From a virus, in IMG/VR virus record IMGVR_UViG_3300042387_002331: DNA of 64,000 nucleotides. One strand, written 5' to 3'. Shown here piece by piece: positions 1,588 to 10,245 of this stretch; the first letter of the stretch is position 1, and every line of letters begins with the position of its first letter. Below the pieces are notes generated by a model that was given only the letters and a program-made list of their open reading frames with translations, made no database searches and was not told the origin of the DNA. The translations under genes were made by a program, and so were the position numbers.

Positions 1588-3291
1588 ATGGCAAATTTCA
1601 CAACTTCTCCTGGAGTAGCAATTAGCGAAATAGATAACACCTTTTTAACCGGACAACCGGTTCAAGCAGGTGCCGCTATTATAGGACCAACAGTTAAAGG
1701 TCCTTATGAAAAACCCACTCTAGTAACTTCTTATTCAGATTTCCAAATGTTGTTTGGAGATTCTTTTATTAGTGGTGGTAATTCTTATTCATATTTAACT
1801 TCAATTGCTGCTTACAATTATTTCAATTATGGAGGAACTTCATTATTAGTAGCCCGAGTAGCTACAGGTTCTTATACTTCTGCTACAAGTTCTAAAATTG
1901 AAAATTACTTTACCTCAGAATCATTTACTTTAGAAACCATTTCAGAAGGAATCATCATGAACAATTCAGGTTCAGGAGCTTCAGGTTCTTTACTTTTAGG
2001 AACTAAGGATAATGTAAGATGGGAAATTACCAATTCAAATACTGGATCAGGTACATTTAACGTATTAATTAGACGTGGAAATGATACTCAAAATAATAAA
2101 ACTATTCTTGAAGCTTGGAATAATGTAACATTAGATCCAAATTCAAATCGTTATATTGCTAGAGTAATTGGTGATCAAAAATTACAATACAATTCTTCAG
2201 CTAATCAAATGGACTTATCTGGAAGTTATCCAAACAACTCAAGATATGTACGTGTAAAAGCTGTAAATTATCCAACACCAAACTATTTTGATGCAAACGG
2301 AATTGCAGTTTCTGCATATACTGCTTCAATTCCAGTAAATGGAAGTGGTTCTTTAGATGGTGCTTTTGGAGGTGCTACTGGAACAACAGGTAGTACTATT
2401 AATTTATATGATAATATCTCAACAAACACTCAAGGTGTAATGGGATATGATTATAACAACATGATTTCATTATTAGGTAATCCTGAAGCATATCAATATA
2501 ATTTATTGTTTACTCCTGGTTTATTAAACGATACTCATACTGCTCAAATTACTAACCTTATTACTAACACAACTGCTAGAGGTGATAGTATGTTAGTATT
2601 TGATTTAACTGATTTTAACAGTGTAATTGGAGATGCAGTAACACAAGCTCAAACTCGTGATACTTCATATGCCGCTTCATATTGGCCTTGGGTTCGTATT
2701 ATTGACCCAGCAACCGGAAAACATGTTTGGTCACCTGCTTCAACAGTAATCCCAGGCGTATATGCATTTAATGATAAAGTATCTGCTCCATGGTTTGCAC
2801 CTGCAGGTATTAATCGTGGTGGTTTAAGTACAGTATTACAAGCACAATATAAATTAACTCAAGCAAATAGAGATACTTTATATGCAAATAATGTTAACCC
2901 AATTGCAACATTACCTAAACAAGGTGTTGTAGTATACGGACAGAAAACATTACAAAAAGCTCAATCTGCTTTAGATCGTGTAAATGTACGTCGTTTGATG
3001 ATTGAATTAAAAAGTTACATTCGTCAAATTGCTGATACTATTGTATTTGAACAAAATACTATTCAAACTAGAACTTCATTTATATCAAGAGTTAACCCAT
3101 ATTTAGAAGCTATCCAACAAAAACAAGGATTATATGCTTTTAAAGTAGTAATGGATGATTCAAATAACGGACCAGCTGTAATTGATCAAAACCAATTAGT
3201 AGGACAAATTTACATCCAACCAACACGCACAGCTGAATTTATTTCTTTGGATTTCATCTTGTTACCAACAGGAGCAGAATTCCCAGGATAA
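1588..3291 (+). CDS. Contractile tail sheath protein 2
   Basis: N-terminal SPGV..EID, plus WFAPAGINRG, GQKTLQ, RVNVRRL and PTRTAEFI; paralogue of the upstream gene. Confidence 0.95.
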   Translation: MANFTTSPGVAISEIDNTFLTGQPVQAGAAIIGPTVKGPYEKPTLVTSYSDFQMLFGDSFISGGNSYSYLTSIAAYNYFNYGGTSLLVARVATGSYTSATSSKIENYFTSESFTLETISEGIIMNNSGSGASGSLLLGTKDNVRWEITNSNTGSGTFNVLIRRGNDTQNNKTILEAWNNVTLDPNSNRYIARVIGDQKLQYNSSANQMDLSGSYPNNSRYVRVKAVNYPTPNYFDANGIAVSAYTASIPVNGSGSLDGAFGGATGTTGSTINLYDNISTNTQGVMGYDYNNMISLLGNPEAYQYNLLFTPGLLNDTHTAQITNLITNTTARGDSMLVFDLTDFNSVIGDAVTQAQTRDTSYAASYWPWVRIIDPATGKHVWSPASTVIPGVYAFNDKVSAPWFAPAGINRGGLSTVLQAQYKLTQANRDTLYANNVNPIATLPKQGVVVYGQKTLQKAQSALDRVNVRRLMIELKSYIRQIADTIVFEQNTIQTRTSFISRVNPYLEAIQQKQGLYAFKVVMDDSNNGPAVIDQNQLVGQIYIQPTRTAEFISLDFILLPTGAEFPG

Positions 3292-3337: not shown

Positions 3338-3826
3338 ATGGCAATTTTAAATCCAAACGAAATATTTTATACAGCGTTTGAACCAAAACAAACAAACCGT
3401 TTTATCCTTTATATGGATGGAGTTCCTTCATACCTAGTAAAAGGAGTAGGAGCTGTTTCTTTAACCCAAACTGCAGTTGCTCTTAACCATATTAACGTTC
3501 AACGTTATGTAAAAGGAAAAACAAAATGGAATACCATTCAGTTTACAATGTATGAATCAATTACTCCTTCGGGTGCCCAAGCAGTAATGGAATGGGTACG
3601 TTTAGGCCACGAATCAGTAACAGGTAGAGATGGATATTCTGACTTCTACAAGAAAGATATTACATTTAATGTTTTAGGTCCTGTAGGTGATATTGTTTCT
3701 GAATGGATTATTAAAGGAGCTGTTATTACTGAAGTTAACTTTGGAGACTATAACTGGGACGACGATGGAACCCCAGTAAATATCCAAGTAACTGTTCAAC
3801 CTGACTACTGTATTTTGAACTACTAA
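3338..3826 (+). CDS. Tail tube protein (T4 gp19-like)
   Basis: 162 aa directly after the sheaths; FEPK..NRF, W..I.FT.Y, YKKDI and W...GA tube-type motifs. Confidence 0.88.
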   Translation: MAILNPNEIFYTAFEPKQTNRFILYMDGVPSYLVKGVGAVSLTQTAVALNHINVQRYVKGKTKWNTIQFTMYESITPSGAQAVMEWVRLGHESVTGRDGYSDFYKKDITFNVLGPVGDIVSEWIIKGAVITEVNFGDYNWDDDGTPVNIQVTVQPDYCILNY

Positions 3827-3850
3827 TATTAGGTTAAAAATATTTTTAAT

Positions 3851-3878
3851 AAAGCTCCAAAGAAATTTGGGGCTTTTA
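3851..3878 (+). terminator. Intrinsic terminator after the tube gene; right arm carries the TTG of the next promoter
   Basis: aaagctccaa-agaaa-tttggggctttt. Confidence 0.75.
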
Positions 3879-3901
3879 TTTTCTTTTAATATACTAAAGC
3901 T

Positions 3902-6361
3902 ATGAAAACAATTAAAGTACTTTTATTTACGTTATTGACTAGTTTTATTTATAGTCAATATTGCCCATTTTTAGGGCCCGATCAATATTTACCTTGTGGT
4001 ACAAACTCAACAACTTTAACCGCAGATTTAAGTCAATGTATTGCAGGTAATAACCCTAATCAAACAACAAATTATAGTGTAGCTAACATACCCTATGTGC
4101 CTCAAATTAATGCTGGTACTTTAGTTCCTTTAGGGGATGATGTTCAATCGAATCCTTATAATATAGGATTTACATTTTGTTTTTATGGTCAAACATATAC
4201 ACAATTTAGGATCGGTTCAAATGGTTGGATTTCATTAGGTCCTGGAGGTCAACCTACAAATTTTACTTCAATGCAGATTCCAACTGCAAATGCTGCCGCA
4301 CCTAAAAATTGCATTATGGGTCCTTGGCAAGATTGGAACCCTGGAGCCGGTGGACAAATTAGATTCCAAACATCAGGTATAGCACCATGTAGAAAATTAA
4401 CCGTAAGTTGGATTGGTGTCCCAATGTTTTCATGTATTAATTTACAGGGAACTTTTCATATCGTATTATATGAATCTACTAATGTAATAGAAAATCACAT
4501 AGCAAATAAACCAAACTGTCCTCAATGGGCCGGAGGAACAGCTGTTCAAGGTATTCATAATACAGCAGGAACACAAGCAGTAACTGTTCCCGGAAGAAAT
4601 TCTACCCAATGGACAACCACAAATAATGCTTGGCGATGGACACCTAGTGGACCCGTTGTTACTCCAACATTAACTTGGTATCAAGTAGGTAATCCTGTTC
4701 CAATTGCAACAGGTGTGAACCAAATTACCGTGACTCCCCCTGTTCAAGGAGCTTATTACACATGTCATTTAGAATACCCTACTTGTAATGCAGGATGGTC
4801 AACTTGTAATGCTGGAGTTGGGTTAGGTCCTGATACAGTGTTTGTACAACCGGGTCCACCAAATTTAAATCAACCAAATTTTGTAAACACAAATCCTTTA
4901 TGTAATGGAGATTGTAACGGATCTATTACAGTAAATCCTACAAATGGTACAGCTCCATTTAATTATGCTTGGGTTACTTTACAAACTACCCCAACAATAA
5001 ACAATTTATGTGCAGGAAACTATATAGTAACAATTACCGATGCAAATAACTGTACTGTAACAGCAAATACCACATTAATTGATCCTCCTGTTTTAGCAGT
5101 ACCTTTAATGGCTGCAACTAATCCTGTTTGTTTTGGAGATTGTAACGGTACAGCAACAGCAAACCCAACTGATGGTATTGCTCCATATACTTATTTATGG
5201 GGGGATGGGCAAACAAATCAAACTGCGATTAATTTATGTGCTGGAACGTATAGTGTAACAGTAACAGATGCAAATGGATGTCCTGCTTCAAATACTATTG
5301 CTTTAGTAAATCCTCCAATAGTCGTAGTAGGAAGTATTACTTCATTAGATACAATATGCTACTTATCCTCTAACGAAACATACTCAGTACCAAGTTTAGG
5401 CGCAGGATATTCTTATAATTGGTCTAGTATAGGAAATATTACCTCAGGTCAAGGAACTAATAATATCACAGTAGATTGGTCTACATTACCTGCAGGGTTT
5501 ATACCTGGAGCTGTTAACGTTATAGCGATAAATCAGTTTGGTTGTACAAGTTTACCACAAGCAGTTGATGTTCATATTTTAAACATTTTACCCACGATAG
5601 ACTCGATTGCTCCACTATGTGACTATAGTAATTGTGTAACCTTAACTGGAATCCCTATTGGAGGAATATTTACAGGAAATGGAATAAATGGAAATACATT
5701 TTGCCCTTCACCTTTAATTGCAGGAAATAATACGATAACATATACTTATGCACAATCAAATTGTACTTTTGATACTACTTGCCAAATAACTGTTTACCCT
5801 AGACCTGCTATTTCACAAATTCAAAATGATTTAGGAAACTTAACATCTGAATTTATAGAATTGTGTGAAGGAGATAGTATAGGTAGAATTTATAATGCAA
5901 CCGCTTTAGGTGGAGGTAATGTAGTATGGATTTTAAACCAAGATAGTATTGCAAACCCAACATTACCCATTGCATGGAATAGCTTTGGAACATTTACCTT
6001 TTCAGCTGTAACATATGAAAACGGATGTGTATCTTATCCTGTATCATTTGCAACTACCATCCAAAGATGCCCTGAAGAATTAATTTACATTCCAAACACA
6101 TTTACTCCAGATGGAGATGAAAATAACAATACTTGGTCCCCAGTATTTACTTCAGGTTTTGATCCTGCTGATTTCCATTTAACCGTTTATAATAGATGGG
6201 GAGAATTAGTATTTGAAAGTTATAACAGTGCTGCTTCTTGGGATGGAACATACAACAATACAAAATGTCAAGATGGAGTTTATACTTGGGTTATAGTTTA
6301 TGGAGATAAAAATACAGATAAAGAAACATTAATTAAAGGAAACGTTACCCTTATTAGATAG
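3902..6361 (+). CDS. T9SS cargo protein with SprB-like repeats and a gliding-motility-associated (type B) C-terminal domain
   Basis: Signal peptide MKTIKVLLFTLLTSFIYS|Q; C.G.C.G...GTAP(F/Y).Y.W...NLCAG.Y.VT.TDAN.C repeats; C-terminal IPNTFTPDGD..N...VYNRWG..VF...WDG...GVY. Confidence 0.88.
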   Translation: MKTIKVLLFTLLTSFIYSQYCPFLGPDQYLPCGTNSTTLTADLSQCIAGNNPNQTTNYSVANIPYVPQINAGTLVPLGDDVQSNPYNIGFTFCFYGQTYTQFRIGSNGWISLGPGGQPTNFTSMQIPTANAAAPKNCIMGPWQDWNPGAGGQIRFQTSGIAPCRKLTVSWIGVPMFSCINLQGTFHIVLYESTNVIENHIANKPNCPQWAGGTAVQGIHNTAGTQAVTVPGRNSTQWTTTNNAWRWTPSGPVVTPTLTWYQVGNPVPIATGVNQITVTPPVQGAYYTCHLEYPTCNAGWSTCNAGVGLGPDTVFVQPGPPNLNQPNFVNTNPLCNGDCNGSITVNPTNGTAPFNYAWVTLQTTPTINNLCAGNYIVTITDANNCTVTANTTLIDPPVLAVPLMAATNPVCFGDCNGTATANPTDGIAPYTYLWGDGQTNQTAINLCAGTYSVTVTDANGCPASNTIALVNPPIVVVGSITSLDTICYLSSNETYSVPSLGAGYSYNWSSIGNITSGQGTNNITVDWSTLPAGFIPGAVNVIAINQFGCTSLPQAVDVHILNILPTIDSIAPLCDYSNCVTLTGIPIGGIFTGNGINGNTFCPSPLIAGNNTITYTYAQSNCTFDTTCQITVYPRPAISQIQNDLGNLTSEFIELCEGDSIGRIYNATALGGGNVVWILNQDSIANPTLPIAWNSFGTFTFSAVTYENGCVSYPVSFATTIQRCPEELIYIPNTFTPDGDENNNTWSPVFTSGFDPADFHLTVYNRWGELVFESYNSAASWDGTYNNTKCQDGVYTWVIVYGDKNTDKETLIKGNVTLIR

Positions 6362-6379
6362 TACAATATTTATAATAGT

Positions 6380-6751
6380 ATGAAACTGAACCACTTACGT
6401 ACTTTAGTTAAAGAGGAGCTTAATAAGCGACTAAACGAAGAATACCAAGACAAATTTAAAATGGTTGGTATGCTTATAACCAACATTAAAAAACGCCCAC
6501 AAAAAGAAATATTTTCTGATATCCGATCAATCCCAGGAGTAACCGTAGCATCTGTTAAAGAACCTATGGAATATAGTGAACAAGACACAGAAAAATTCCA
6601 GTCAATTATGACTGTAAAAGTTGATGGTCATCCTTGGATTACAAAAGGTGGTTTTGATCGTACAAAAATGGAAGATATTCGTAAAGCAATATTAAAGGTA
6701 GAAGGAGTTTTATCATATAATGTAAATCCTGATAATATTTCTTCTCTTTAA
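6380..6751 (+). CDS. Hypothetical late protein with LRTLVKEE...LNEE leader
   Basis: 123 aa ORF with ATATTTATAA at 6366-6375. Confidence 0.7.
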   Translation: MKLNHLRTLVKEELNKRLNEEYQDKFKMVGMLITNIKKRPQKEIFSDIRSIPGVTVASVKEPMEYSEQDTEKFQSIMTVKVDGHPWITKGGFDRTKMEDIRKAILKVEGVLSYNVNPDNISSL

Positions 6752-6792: not shown

Positions 6793-7521
6793 ATGAGTGA
6801 ATTTAAATTACCAACTGAAACAGTTGAATTACCTTCTAAAGGCTTACTATATCCTGAAGATTCTGAATTAGCAAAAGGTACTGTTGAAATTAAATACATG
6901 ACTGCTAAAGAAGAAGATATTCTTACCAACCAATCATATATTAAAAACGGTACTGTATTGGATAAATTAATGAAATCATTAATTGTGTCAAAAATTAATT
7001 ATGATGATATTTTAATTGGTGATAAAAATGCAATTATGGTTGCTGCTCGTATTTTAGGATATGGTGCTGAATATACTTTTAATTATTTAGGTGATTCTCA
7101 TACAGTAGATTTATCTCAAGTTGAAAATAAACCACTTAAAGAAGAATTATTTGCAAATCGTGTAAACGAATTTACCTTTACCCTTCCTAAATCAGGTAAT
7201 GTAGTTACATTTAAACTTTTAAGTCATAAAGACGAACAAGATATTGCTCGTGAACTAGAAGGTTTGAAAAAAATCAATAAAGATGCCTCTCCCGAACTTT
7301 CAACCCGTTTAAAATACCTAATCACCTCAGTAGAAGGAAAACGAGATAAAAAAGACATTCGAGAATTTGTCGACAATTATCTTCTCGCCCAAGACTCCAG
7401 GGCATTAAGAGAATATATTAGAGAGATTCAACCAGATGTTGATCTAACTTTTTTTCCCGACGGGAGTGACGATAGAATCAGTATCCCAATTGGGATTAGC
7501 TTTTTTTGGCCTGACCTATGA
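6793..7521 (+). CDS. Baseplate hub assembly / tail assembly chaperone (T4 gp26-like)
   Basis: LPS.G..Y, MTAKEEDIL and C-terminal ..FFWP; upstream of the tape measure gene. Confidence 0.75.
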   Translation: MSEFKLPTETVELPSKGLLYPEDSELAKGTVEIKYMTAKEEDILTNQSYIKNGTVLDKLMKSLIVSKINYDDILIGDKNAIMVAARILGYGAEYTFNYLGDSHTVDLSQVENKPLKEELFANRVNEFTFTLPKSGNVVTFKLLSHKDEQDIARELEGLKKINKDASPELSTRLKYLITSVEGKRDKKDIREFVDNYLLAQDSRALREYIREIQPDVDLTFFPDGSDDRISIPIGISFFWPDL

Positions 7522-7839: not shown

Positions 7840-10245
7840 ATGGCTTTAACTCCTAAAGAACAAGAAAAGTTAAATAAACTTATCCAAGAAGGTATTAAAC
7901 TAGCTCAGCAGTTAAATGATACCCAACAAGCAACAAGTTTTCAAAATTTTACTGGGAGTCTTTCTGATGCTGAACGAATAGTTAAATCATTAAGACAAGA
8001 TTGGGCTGATTATGTTTCTGATATTGGAGGAGCTAGAGAAGGTTTTACTAGAATTGTTGATGAGATGAAAAACATGAATAGTGGACTTGGAAAATCTAAA
8101 GCAGCATTTTCAGATTTATCCAGTTTAGCAGCAAAATTACAAAGTCACCAACAAGGAATATCTACTTTATCAGTAAAAGAATTACAAAATTTAAAGAAAA
8201 AAGTTGCTGAAAAATTAAACGATTTAAAACTTTCCCAAAAACTTATAGCTGACGAAATTTCAGGATTAGAAAATAAAAGTACACTTGAAGCTAATGAGGT
8301 AGCTCGTTTAACTAAATTAAGGGCGGCTCAAAATGAAATTAATAGTGAATTAAGTGAACAAAGTGTCCATATAAATAGATTTAATGCTCAGTTAGACGAA
8401 CAAATTAAGTTAGAAGAACAAATCAATTCTAAACTTGGTCTTACAGGCAAGTTAATAAAAGGAATTAGCCAAGTACCATTAGTTGGTAAATTTATTGATG
8501 CTGATAAAGCATTAGGCAAAATGCGAGATACTGCTAAAGATGGTGGTGGAAAATTAGCAACTTTAGGAGCAGGATTTAAATCTATTGGCGGTGATATAGC
8601 AAAAGGACTTACAGACCCTTTATTTTTAGTCACTCAGCTAGTTAAAATGTTTATAGATGTAGATAAGCAAGCTGGAGCTTTTGCTAAATCACAAAACATA
8701 AGTTATAAAGATGCATTAAAAATGAGAGAAGAATATGCTGCTATGGCAGTTTCTTCTGGAGATATGTCATTAAATGCTAGGGCATTTATGGAAACCCAAA
8801 GTGCTATTGGCACCTCATTAGGAACAAATGCTAAACTTAATAAAGCTGATTTAGAAACCTTTACTAAACTACGTGAAAAAGCAGGACTTACTAATGAAGA
8901 GTTAGTTTCAATTCAAAAAGTATCCTTAGTAAACGGAAAAACCTTAGCCCAAAATTCCTCAGAAATATTAGGAGGTGCTAAAGCATATGCTATGCGTAAT
9001 AAACTTGTTATAAACGAAAAACAAGTATTAAAAGACGTTTCTAAAGCATCATCTGCTTTAACTTTAAGTTTAGGAGGAAGTTTAAAAGCTGTATCCGAAG
9101 CTGTAGTAAAAGCTAAACAATTTGGTTTGACTCTTGAACAAACCGAAAAAATGTCTGAAAGCTTATTAAACTTTGAACAATCTATTGAAAGTGAATTAAG
9201 TGCAGAATTACTTTTAGGTAAAGATTTAAATTTTGAACGAGCAAGAGGATTAGCATTAAACGGAAAAACTGCTGATGCTGCCGCTGAGATAGCAGCCCAA
9301 GTAGGCTCAGCTGCTGATTTTGGTAAATTAAACGTAATCCAACAAGAAGCTATTGCTAAAGCTATTGGGTTAAATCGAGAAGAATTAGCTAAATCATTAA
9401 TAGAAAGAGAAGCGTTAGCTAAAATTGGTTTTAAAGATGCTGAAGCTGCTAAAGCAAGATATGAAGAATTAAGAAAAACCCGTACTGCTGAAGAAGCAGC
9501 TAAAGAATTAGGTGATGAACAATTAGCTTTGCAATTTGAACAACAATCTAATGCTGAAAAATTTGCTCAAACTATGGAGCATGTTAAAGAAATTTTTGTT
9601 AGCATTGTTGATGGTCCTATGGGTTTAATACTAAACTTCTTAGGTGAAATGTTAAAAAATACTACATTAATATACTCAATTACTGGACTTTTAGCAGGAT
9701 TATATGCTGGAAAATTAGTTGGGGGTATTATTATGGCTATTGGACGAACTATAGCTTTAATAGCTGCTAATACCGCAAACGCTGCTGCAGCTACTGCTGC
9801 ATCTACAGCTATGTCATTTGGAGCTATAGTCCCTGTTATATTAGCAGGAGTAGGAGCCGTTATAGGAGCAATCGCTGCATATAAAGCTGATGACTTAATG
9901 TCCGCCCCTCCAGGATACGGTAAACGCACCTTAGTAGGCCCAGAAGGAGCAATCCAATTAAACGATAAAGATACAGTTATTGCAGGTACAAATTTATTTG
10001 GAAACGACGTTAAATCTGAACCAGGTAAAGCTACCAAAATGGGTGGGAAAGGAGAAATTAAATTAGGTGGTGATTCTTCATCTGTAGTAAATGCCATAAT
10101 GGAACTAAGAAAAGATGTAAACGCTTTAGCTAATCGTCCAATAAATGTAGCTATTGATGGTAAAAAAGTAATTGAAGCAACAACTGGTGATAACCCAAAT
10201 ACTCAAGGAGACGAAAATAGAAAAAATAGTTACAAAATGTCTTAA
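7840..10245 (+). CDS. Tape measure protein
   Basis: 801 aa, Ala/Leu/Lys/Glu-rich helical with a hydrophobic C-terminal stretch; follows the chaperone pair. Confidence 0.8.
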   Translation: MALTPKEQEKLNKLIQEGIKLAQQLNDTQQATSFQNFTGSLSDAERIVKSLRQDWADYVSDIGGAREGFTRIVDEMKNMNSGLGKSKAAFSDLSSLAAKLQSHQQGISTLSVKELQNLKKKVAEKLNDLKLSQKLIADEISGLENKSTLEANEVARLTKLRAAQNEINSELSEQSVHINRFNAQLDEQIKLEEQINSKLGLTGKLIKGISQVPLVGKFIDADKALGKMRDTAKDGGGKLATLGAGFKSIGGDIAKGLTDPLFLVTQLVKMFIDVDKQAGAFAKSQNISYKDALKMREEYAAMAVSSGDMSLNARAFMETQSAIGTSLGTNAKLNKADLETFTKLREKAGLTNEELVSIQKVSLVNGKTLAQNSSEILGGAKAYAMRNKLVINEKQVLKDVSKASSALTLSLGGSLKAVSEAVVKAKQFGLTLEQTEKMSESLLNFEQSIESELSAELLLGKDLNFERARGLALNGKTADAAAEIAAQVGSAADFGKLNVIQQEAIAKAIGLNREELAKSLIEREALAKIGFKDAEAAKARYEELRKTRTAEEAAKELGDEQLALQFEQQSNAEKFAQTMEHVKEIFVSIVDGPMGLILNFLGEMLKNTTLIYSITGLLAGLYAGKLVGGIIMAIGRTIALIAANTANAAAATAASTAMSFGAIVPVILAGVGAVIGAIAAYKADDLMSAPPGYGKRTLVGPEGAIQLNDKDTVIAGTNLFGNDVKSEPGKATKMGGKGEIKLGGDSSSVVNAIMELRKDVNALANRPINVAIDGKKVIEATTGDNPNTQGDENRKNSYKMS

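Follow-up and report, generated by a model that had tools for sequence, protein, structure and literature searches.

The 64,000-nucleotide stretch of viral DNA considered here (IMG/VR record IMGVR_UViG_3300042387_002331, hereafter the window) is part of a 166,116 bp genome with direct terminal repeats, from a T4-like freshwater phage in which all genes share the same coding strand. In its tail module, an open reading frame (ORF) at 3902-6361 (+) encodes a product of 819 amino acids (aa) which has the sequence features of a cargo of the Sec pathway and of the T9SS (type IX secretion system) with a type B C-terminal sorting domain (CTD). Judging from the genes alone, we consider it probable that this ORF, carried by a moron-type cassette, encodes a phage-adapted T9SS cargo which would be displayed through a shuttle of the host and would alter the adhesion of the infected cell. 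The export signals of the protein, the insertion of its gene, its membership in a phage-specific clade and the purifying selection acting on it are established by the sequence and its comparison with relatives.

Architecture of the 819-aa protein

The protein begins with a Sec signal peptide (aa 1-18, together with Gln19 at 3902-3958, +), which was called by eye and from an alignment. It consists of MKTIKVLLFTLLTSFIYS followed by Q at the cleavage point, with a Lys-rich n-region, a hydrophobic core of 13 aa and Ser at position -1. Gln19 is invariant in 19 out of 19 diverse homologues, as is M1, and the hydrophobic core is retained in the alignment. According to the Q-rule of Bacteroidota, by which the substrates of signal peptidase I begin with Gln (PMC5837995), Gln19 is the predicted N-terminus of the mature protein after cleavage.

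The region that follows, referred to here as the head (aa 20-320, 3959-4861, +), is the most conserved part of the protein and contains 11 of its 30 Cys. Next come two Cys-rich SprB repeats (aa ~325-470, 4862-5311, +), matched by Pfam PF13573 in two stretches with 61.3 bits against a cut-off of 28, and a stalk of PKD-like/Ig-like domains with a conserved Cys pattern (aa 471-725, 5312-6076, +), in which PKD_6 (PF19408) was found at residues 476-550 (37.1 bits, cut-off 25). The type B CTD (aa 726-819, with the stop codon 6077-6361, +) is recognized both by Pfam CHU_C at residues 729-807 (60.3 bits, cut-off 27) and by NCBIfam TIGR04131 at residues 729-819, covering positions 2-85 of the 85 in the model (48 bits, cut-off 35). 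Domains of this type carry five motifs, A-E, in their last 100 aa, each of which is required for secretion (PMC12618676). Besides the full-length coverage of the model, the alignment of the phage homologues shows the invariant blocks PN.FTP.G, NRWG, WDGT and G.Y. The signal peptide with Gln19 and the CTD are present in all aligned phage homologues, and the 819-aa ORF is the only CTD protein of the whole genome. The high number of Cys fits an extracytoplasmic protein and argues against folding in the cytoplasm.

The initial annotation, made from the letters of the window, had described a secreted-type protein with a Sec signal, a Gln, Cys-rich SprB-like repeats and an intact CTD, and this description holds, since the TIGR04131, CHU_C and SprB models all match above their curated cut-offs. 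It had also seen no PorP/SprF partner in the window, and this absence extends to the entire genome, where PF11751 had zero matches. The label of SprB-like adhesin, on the other hand, was a loose one: SprB repeats are indeed present, but there are just two of them, and it is with another gliding adhesin, RemA, that the conserved head shows a relation, namely with its N-terminus. Two repeats in 819 aa, alleles with none and a genome lacking sprF do not describe an SprB orthologue. Among the phage homologues the number of repeats ranges from 0 to 2, with gaps in the alignment for the loci L046, L050, L052 and L055.

The head has a mean column identity of 77% and no match to any Pfam family. Its AlphaFold2 model, which reached a predicted local distance difference test (pLDDT) score of 71 with 19 phage sequences and 93.7 with 70 sequences, shows an Ig-like domain, formed by the first strands and residues ~250-320, into which a beta-sandwich of ~190 aa is inserted. 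A broad profile of the family (A3) matched residues 19-358 of Flavobacterium johnsoniae RemA (PDB 8gl6 chain D; E 2.5e-11, 46 bits) as well as the repeats and the C-terminus of the grappling-hook protein GhpA of Aureispira. This profile match makes the head a homologue of RemA's N-terminal region. The relation is a distant one, as the narrow profile A2, built from phage sequences only, had no matches among PDB sequences and did not reach RemA. Foldseek with both head models against PDB returned nothing at E <= 0.001, and a wide VIA-align search gave only Ig-like matches of ~80 residues, with Z up to 7.4. A search of BFVD retrieved a few uncharacterised phage proteins with the head fold (best E 3.6e-10). 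A likeness of the head to NIDO (PF06119) is a weak lead: the 819-aa protein itself has no match, 6 of 70 family members match weakly (best E 0.0012), and the Atlas feature score was 0.91 to a cluster with NIDO in 12% of its members.

The head family is far broader than this protein. It comprises 13,901 clusters at 50% identity (E<=1e-3), includes the N-terminus of RemA and is without a Pfam model, and up to 14 matched stretches occur in single giant proteins of 2,000-4,600 aa. In addition, against the same relatives the head shows a synonymous divergence (dS) of 0.8-1.4 where the other parts of the gene have 0.4-0.65. This roughly twofold difference suggests that head segments have recombined between alleles.

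Insertion in the tail module and the question of the promoter

A search with the tail tube protein yielded 80 related tail loci, of which 69 were informative. A homologue of the 819-aa gene is present in 9 of them; in the other 60 the small ORF or the hub gene comes immediately after the tube gene, with a gap of mostly 81-150 nucleotides (nt) between them. The gene is thus a moron-type accessory cassette, present or absent between the same two genes with clean boundaries. On the left, the tail tube gene is followed by a terminator-like hairpin, AAAGCTCCAAA-GAAA-TTTGGGGCTTT, with a T-run (3851-3886, hairpin 3851-3876, +). With its 11 pairs the hairpin reaches -13.7 kcal/mol (z -3.66); 13 relatives carry it unchanged, and it is also found at the empty sites L141 and L158; the terminator belongs to the recipient phage and lies outside the insert. 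At L141, the nearest empty site, with a tube protein 97% identical, the order is stop codon, hairpin, TTTATTTTCTTTT, ACT, ATATTTATAA and ATG. In the filled site of the window the hairpin and T-run are followed by AATATACTAAAGCT-ATG, 2,460 nt, TAG-TACA and ATATTTATAA. Hence, where empty sites have 3 nt between the T-run and the late-promoter motif, the window has a cassette of ~2.48 kb, spanning ~3887-6365 and lying exactly between the terminator and the late promoter. Its left end is an AT-rich leader (AATATACTAAAGCT, 3887-3901, +) with TATAYTAARG, conserved in relatives. Its right border is the late-promoter motif of the next gene (ATATTTATAA, 6366-6375, +), which starts five bases after the stop codon, with no terminator following the gene.

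More than 20 independent IMG/VR contigs have this same pair of junctions. Together with the clean boundaries given by the empty sites, this shows that the arrangement is not an assembly chimera, the error that could have overturned the initial annotation, whose placement of the gene between the tube terminator and the next late motif is confirmed by the relatives. Moreover, divergent alleles of 657 aa (nearest to the L055 type) and 733 aa (nearest to the L048 type) occupy the same slot, which marks it as a hotspot exchanging members of the family. In one locus (L146:3865-4482) the tube-to-baseplate slot holds a different ORF, of 205 aa, with a similar signal peptide ending in YSQ. This slot may collect genes for secreted proteins in general.

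The late motif of this phage, ATAT(T/G)TATAA(TA), is found 15 times in the window, where 2.05 would be expected, and every copy stands on the + strand ahead of a start codon (1566, 3307, 6366, 7817, 10252, 26078, 28135, 29629, 36141, 42069, 48622, 52581, 55358, 56589 and 60283), and its strand count in the whole genome is 34 vs 1. At the five tail-module sites measured it lies 14-31 nt before the start codon. No late motif precedes the 819-aa gene, unlike its tail neighbours; a late-like ATATTTTTAA at 3840, with one mismatch, was dropped as relatives do not conserve it. Among the other upstream regions, a k-mer screen revealed a second promoter class, GGAAT(A)-N17-TTCGTATATT(G), with ~35 copies before small ORFs at ~72,000-98,500 on the scale of the window strand, beyond the window. 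These GGAAT-N17-TTCGTATATT elements are presumably early promoters, read by unmodified host polymerase, and their consensus differs from the textbook TTTG / TAnnTTTG of Bacteroidota.

The initial annotation had assigned to the gene its own host-type promoter, TTG-N20-TATACT. This string is literally present, but its host-type character found no support. The element before the gene reads TTTTAATATA(C/T)TAA(A/G)GCT and sits at the insertion junction. It fits neither the late nor the early consensus and, lacking the invariant CG and the GGAAT box of the early promoters, it cannot be called a host-type promoter. The Bacteroidota consensus is TTTG-N18-21-TAnnTTTG, and the element agrees with its -7 part, TAnnTTTG, in TAnnT only (TAnnTT in relatives). 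Across the genome, this canonical consensus matched once on the coding strand and 13 times on the non-coding strand; perfect canonical copies therefore do not mark the genes of this phage. A sigma-70 scan, which uses an E. coli-type consensus not relevant to Bacteroidota, found no site before the gene. Expression could rely on a weak promoter or on read-through of the tube terminator, the latter being as possible as a promoter of its own. The core TATAYTAARG has just 2 copies in the 64-kb window, which matches chance expectation. Since it also occurs 8-17 nt before the gene in L020-type phages, where the gene context is different, there is a hint that the short leader travels with the gene.

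Around the cassette, the tail module consists of two tail sheath paralogues (33-1541 and 1588-3291, both +), the tail tube gene (3338-3826, +), the small ORF (6380-6751, +) and a gene for a baseplate-hub-like protein (6793-7521, +). The sheath paralogues form a tandem pair with a late motif before each, and the pair is kept in relatives. Further downstream, an ORF of 801 aa (7840-10245) has 27-69% identity among relatives, while the flanking tail genes have 85-99%; it is probably a hypervariable receptor-binding or fibre protein. When the first 12 kb were compared with GenBank phages by megablast, there were zero matches.

A phage-specific gene family

A search with the head region retrieved 1,175 proteins in clusters of 90% identity, of which the best 120 share the architecture described above. 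Homologues were found in 57 IMG/VR loci, on contigs of up to 436 kb, and in the uncultured phages LR745206 and LR756502 of GenBank (634 kb and 642 kb). The genomes of 185,579 species contained 195 loci with head identity up to 68%, nearly all in metagenome-assembled genomes (MAGs) labelled as Bacteroidota (Crocinitomicaceae, Flavobacteriales, Sphingobacteriaceae and 'Bacteroidia'). The contexts of these bacterial homologues are chromosomal, with enolase, carA and E1 dehydrogenase nearby. The cargo is also present on three contigs labelled Competibacteraceae (Pseudomonadota) or 'Akkermansia' (L062, L078 and L087), which are probably mis-binned or mislabelled MAG contigs; in L062 the neighbour is CarboxypepD_reg (TonB-receptor-like).

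In a quick IQ-TREE search with 100 head regions, all 37 phage rows (37/37) and a single Crocinitomicaceae row (L060) formed one clade, with a Shimodaira-Hasegawa-like approximate likelihood ratio test (SH-aLRT) value of 99. Its sisters are chromosomal cargo of Flavobacteriales/Crocinitomicaceae. The carriers in the phage clade are T4-like phages and phages of 270-436 kb and 634 kb. Copies that are 79-90% identical retain the tail context, and copies that are 45-64% identical adjoin genes for GroEL, thymidylate synthase, topoisomerase II, nucleotide-sugar epimerase, dehydrogenase or elongation factor. In L020-type phages the homologous gene stands near thymidylate synthase and GroEL, with a tRNA-like sequence (L020:7890-7965) directly upstream of it.

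Against six relatives, the ratio of nonsynonymous to synonymous substitution rates (dN/dS) came to 0.15-0.20 for the whole gene and stayed under 0.3 in each of the regions head, repeat, stalk and CTD, with 0.11-0.15 for the head, 0.13-0.29 for the CTD and 0.23-0.51 for the 19 codons of the signal peptide. The GC content of the gene is 0.355 and that of its neighbours 0.324; at third codon positions (GC3) it is 0.16, as in the phage neighbours, which implies a long residence in phages. Comparison of the sequences thus indicates that the gene is old in phages, selected as a secreted protein and mobile between phage lineages. It belongs to a large, phage-specific and mobile gene family, which the initial annotation had missed.

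Proposed export through a host shuttle, rival explanations and known systems

Cargo of the T9SS requires both a Sec signal and a CTD (PMC12618676). A type B CTD has its specific PorP/SprF-like shuttle, whereas one orphan shuttle is common to the orphan cargoes, and the CTD also determines whether a cargo rides the gliding track or is placed statically (PMC12618676). Type B cargo stays bound to the PorP-like protein on the surface (PMC9143113). Host-like MAGs have 10-22 PorP/SprF genes and the phage has 0, so that a shuttle would have to be borrowed from the host. Among bacterial homologues, L060 has a CTD with 56% identity to the phage one, and the others have 46% at most; the shuttle of the host homologue is thus the simplest candidate. 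No PorP/SprF gene was found among the Pfam-scanned immediate neighbours of L060, L061, L062 and L071, a scan that excluded the upstream genes of L060 (1,609 aa) and L062 (224 aa). A tblastn search with a single PorP/SprF seed, which has low sensitivity, located such genes only near L079 and L080.

From these data we infer secretion, borrowing of a shuttle, display on the surface and an adhesive effect. The protein would be made in an infected Flavobacteriales/Crocinitomicaceae-like cell and pass through Sec by its signal peptide; signal peptidase I would expose Gln19, which would be cyclised, and the Cys-rich domains would fold in the periplasm. The type B CTD would then route the protein through the T9SS translocon of the host, and a PorP/SprF-like host shuttle, most likely that of the host's own homologous 'orphan' cargo, would extract the protein and retain it on the cell surface. 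There, the RemA-like head on its SprB/PKD stalk could bind a ligand and alter the sticking, aggregation or gliding of the infected cell. As the family is common to very different large phages, the carrier phages probably re-dress the surface of the cells they infect.

Some observations weigh against this proposal. The phage looks lytic, being T4-like with direct terminal repeats, and it is not obvious that a lytic T4-like infection leaves sufficient time for display to matter. The pairing of type B CTDs with shuttles is highly specific (PMC12618676), and in some hosts the export of an orphan phage cargo might therefore fail. A few other phage proteins have the head fold as well, which, taken alone, would permit a role in the virion, and the Pfam scan of the 819-aa protein shows no lectin domain. 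The lectin activity of RemA presumably belongs to a separate lectin domain and not to the N-terminus. Finally, no promoter of either phage class was recognised before the gene.

The main rival explanation accepts the same export and differs in its outcome, which would be superinfection exclusion or protection of the progeny. The protein would mask or replace a T9SS/gliding receptor, or compete for the shuttle and stall the gliding adhesins, so that later phages, or progeny released near debris, would not adsorb. Tail-operon morons do include exclusion proteins, such as gp15 of HK97 and Llp of T5. Moreover, the genes to which resistance of Flavobacterium to phages has been mapped are largely those of gliding and the T9SS (bioRxiv 10.1101/2020.10.02.323337; PMC9804748), which means that these surface components govern adsorption. 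The phage copy also mimics host cargo closely, as seen in its CTD, and if the use of the host shuttle is obligatory, competition with host cargo would arise. However, the same head, with its 77% column identity, is found in phages of 150-634 kb with unrelated tail and receptor-binding modules, and the blocking of a single phage-specific receptor would not lead one to expect this. Because one conserved head serves phages with unrelated tails, a change in adhesion, aggregation or gliding is favoured by these comparisons, and exclusion appears rather unlikely.

It is improbable that the protein belongs to the virion, for instance to the tail, the fibres or the decoration, with Ig-like domains and with a signal-like N-terminus and a CTD that would be bacterial relics. 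The gene does lie within the tail module, virions often bear Ig/PKD domains, uncharacterised phage proteins share the head fold, and there is a weak PHROG match to a Hoc-like decoration protein within the SprB-repeat region. Nevertheless, the signal peptide, Gln19 and CTD are under purifying selection, 30 Cys speak against cytoplasmic folding, and 60 of the 69 relatives have the same tail genes without this gene, which elsewhere sits among replication and metabolic genes and which lacks the late promoter motif of its tail neighbours. That the gene is a passenger with no phage role, acquired by chance from a host or brought in by mis-assembly, has very little in its favour, since against its slightly higher GC and the existence of bacterial homologues stand the identical junctions in independent contigs, the monophyly of the phage copies in a family of more than 1,000 members, a dN/dS of about 0.15, the phage-like GC3 and the movement of the gene among phage lineages and slots.

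A cargo displayed through a borrowed shuttle would have consequences beyond this phage. T9SS cargo and gliding adhesins govern particle attachment, movement and phage recognition in Bacteroidota, and infection would thus reprogram the surface of abundant lake bacteria, which could affect aggregation, sinking, grazing and competition among phages. More tentatively, and with somewhat less than even confidence, we suggest that the large phages of freshwater Bacteroidota share a horizontally traded 'surface-conversion' gene, a type B adhesin mimic that parasitises the PorP/SprF shuttle of the host and whose display alters gliding, aggregation or particle attachment or excludes other phages. The gene also allows many large and huge phages without a cultured representative to be assigned to a host phylum and, roughly, an order. 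It provides a natural case for testing what fits a type B CTD to a given PorP/SprF shuttle, and points to the very large head-domain family without Pfam model that includes RemA.

Several known systems resemble this cassette in part. The lambdoid morons (lom and bor of lambda, gp15 of HK97) encode envelope proteins that alter the host cell and are not part of the virion, and the 819-aa gene is likewise an extra gene of a late/tail operon, absent from close relatives, for a putative envelope protein; unlike it, they act from prophages and have their own promoter and terminator, whereas this phage looks lytic. SprB, the main gliding adhesin, is ~8 times longer, has repeats over most of its length and shares a transcript with SprF, its shuttle. 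Both SprB and the phage protein contain SprB repeats and a type B CTD that fall in the same Pfam/TIGRFAM families; the phage protein differs in that it has just two repeats, or none in certain phage alleles, that its head is another one and that sprF is absent. With RemA, a mobile cell-surface gliding adhesin with a separate lectin domain and a type A CTD, the homology covers the N-terminal ~210-340 aa and includes the shared DDxxS..FxFxFxGxxYTQ..SxNGW.SF, W.D and LYE..N.IE strand; RemA has 1,436 aa, while the phage protein has 819 aa, a type B CTD and no lectin domain found by Pfam.

Closer in organization are the F. johnsoniae orphan cargoes Fjoh_1123, Fjoh_1720 as well as Fjoh_4934 (Paillat et al. 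2025, PMC12618676), putative adhesins with a Sec signal, Ig-like repeats and a type B CTD, and without an adjacent PorP/SprF gene. They are served by the orphan shuttle Fjoh_1677 (PMC12618676). These cargoes are chromosomal and have their shuttle in the same genome, whereas the cargo in the window is viral and its shuttle would have to be that of the host.

Phage-encoded T9SS cargo with type A domains has already been published. It was described as a 'unique occurrence' in the 'Cryophage' (Bellas et al. 2020, PMC7468147); in addition, crAss-BACON ORFs bear a T9SS sorting domain (PMC6949934), and Q-rule signal peptides were noted in phages of P. gingivalis (PMC10367356). In the literature we found no paper on a phage-specific family of type B, adhesin-like cargo; if the present proposal is right, this would be the first virus-specific type B cargo family and would give a handle on the hijacking of shuttle specificity. 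The Cryophage and crAss-BACON genes are, like the one described here, Bacteroidota phage genes with a T9SS sorting domain, flexible or variable, and have been read as a hijack of secretion. Their domains are of type A, which implies the PorV route, and their products are enzymes and a PA14 protein. The protein of the window, in contrast, is of type B, would need a PorP/SprF-like shuttle, is adhesin-like, and belongs to a single phage-specific clade that extends over many lineages of large phages.

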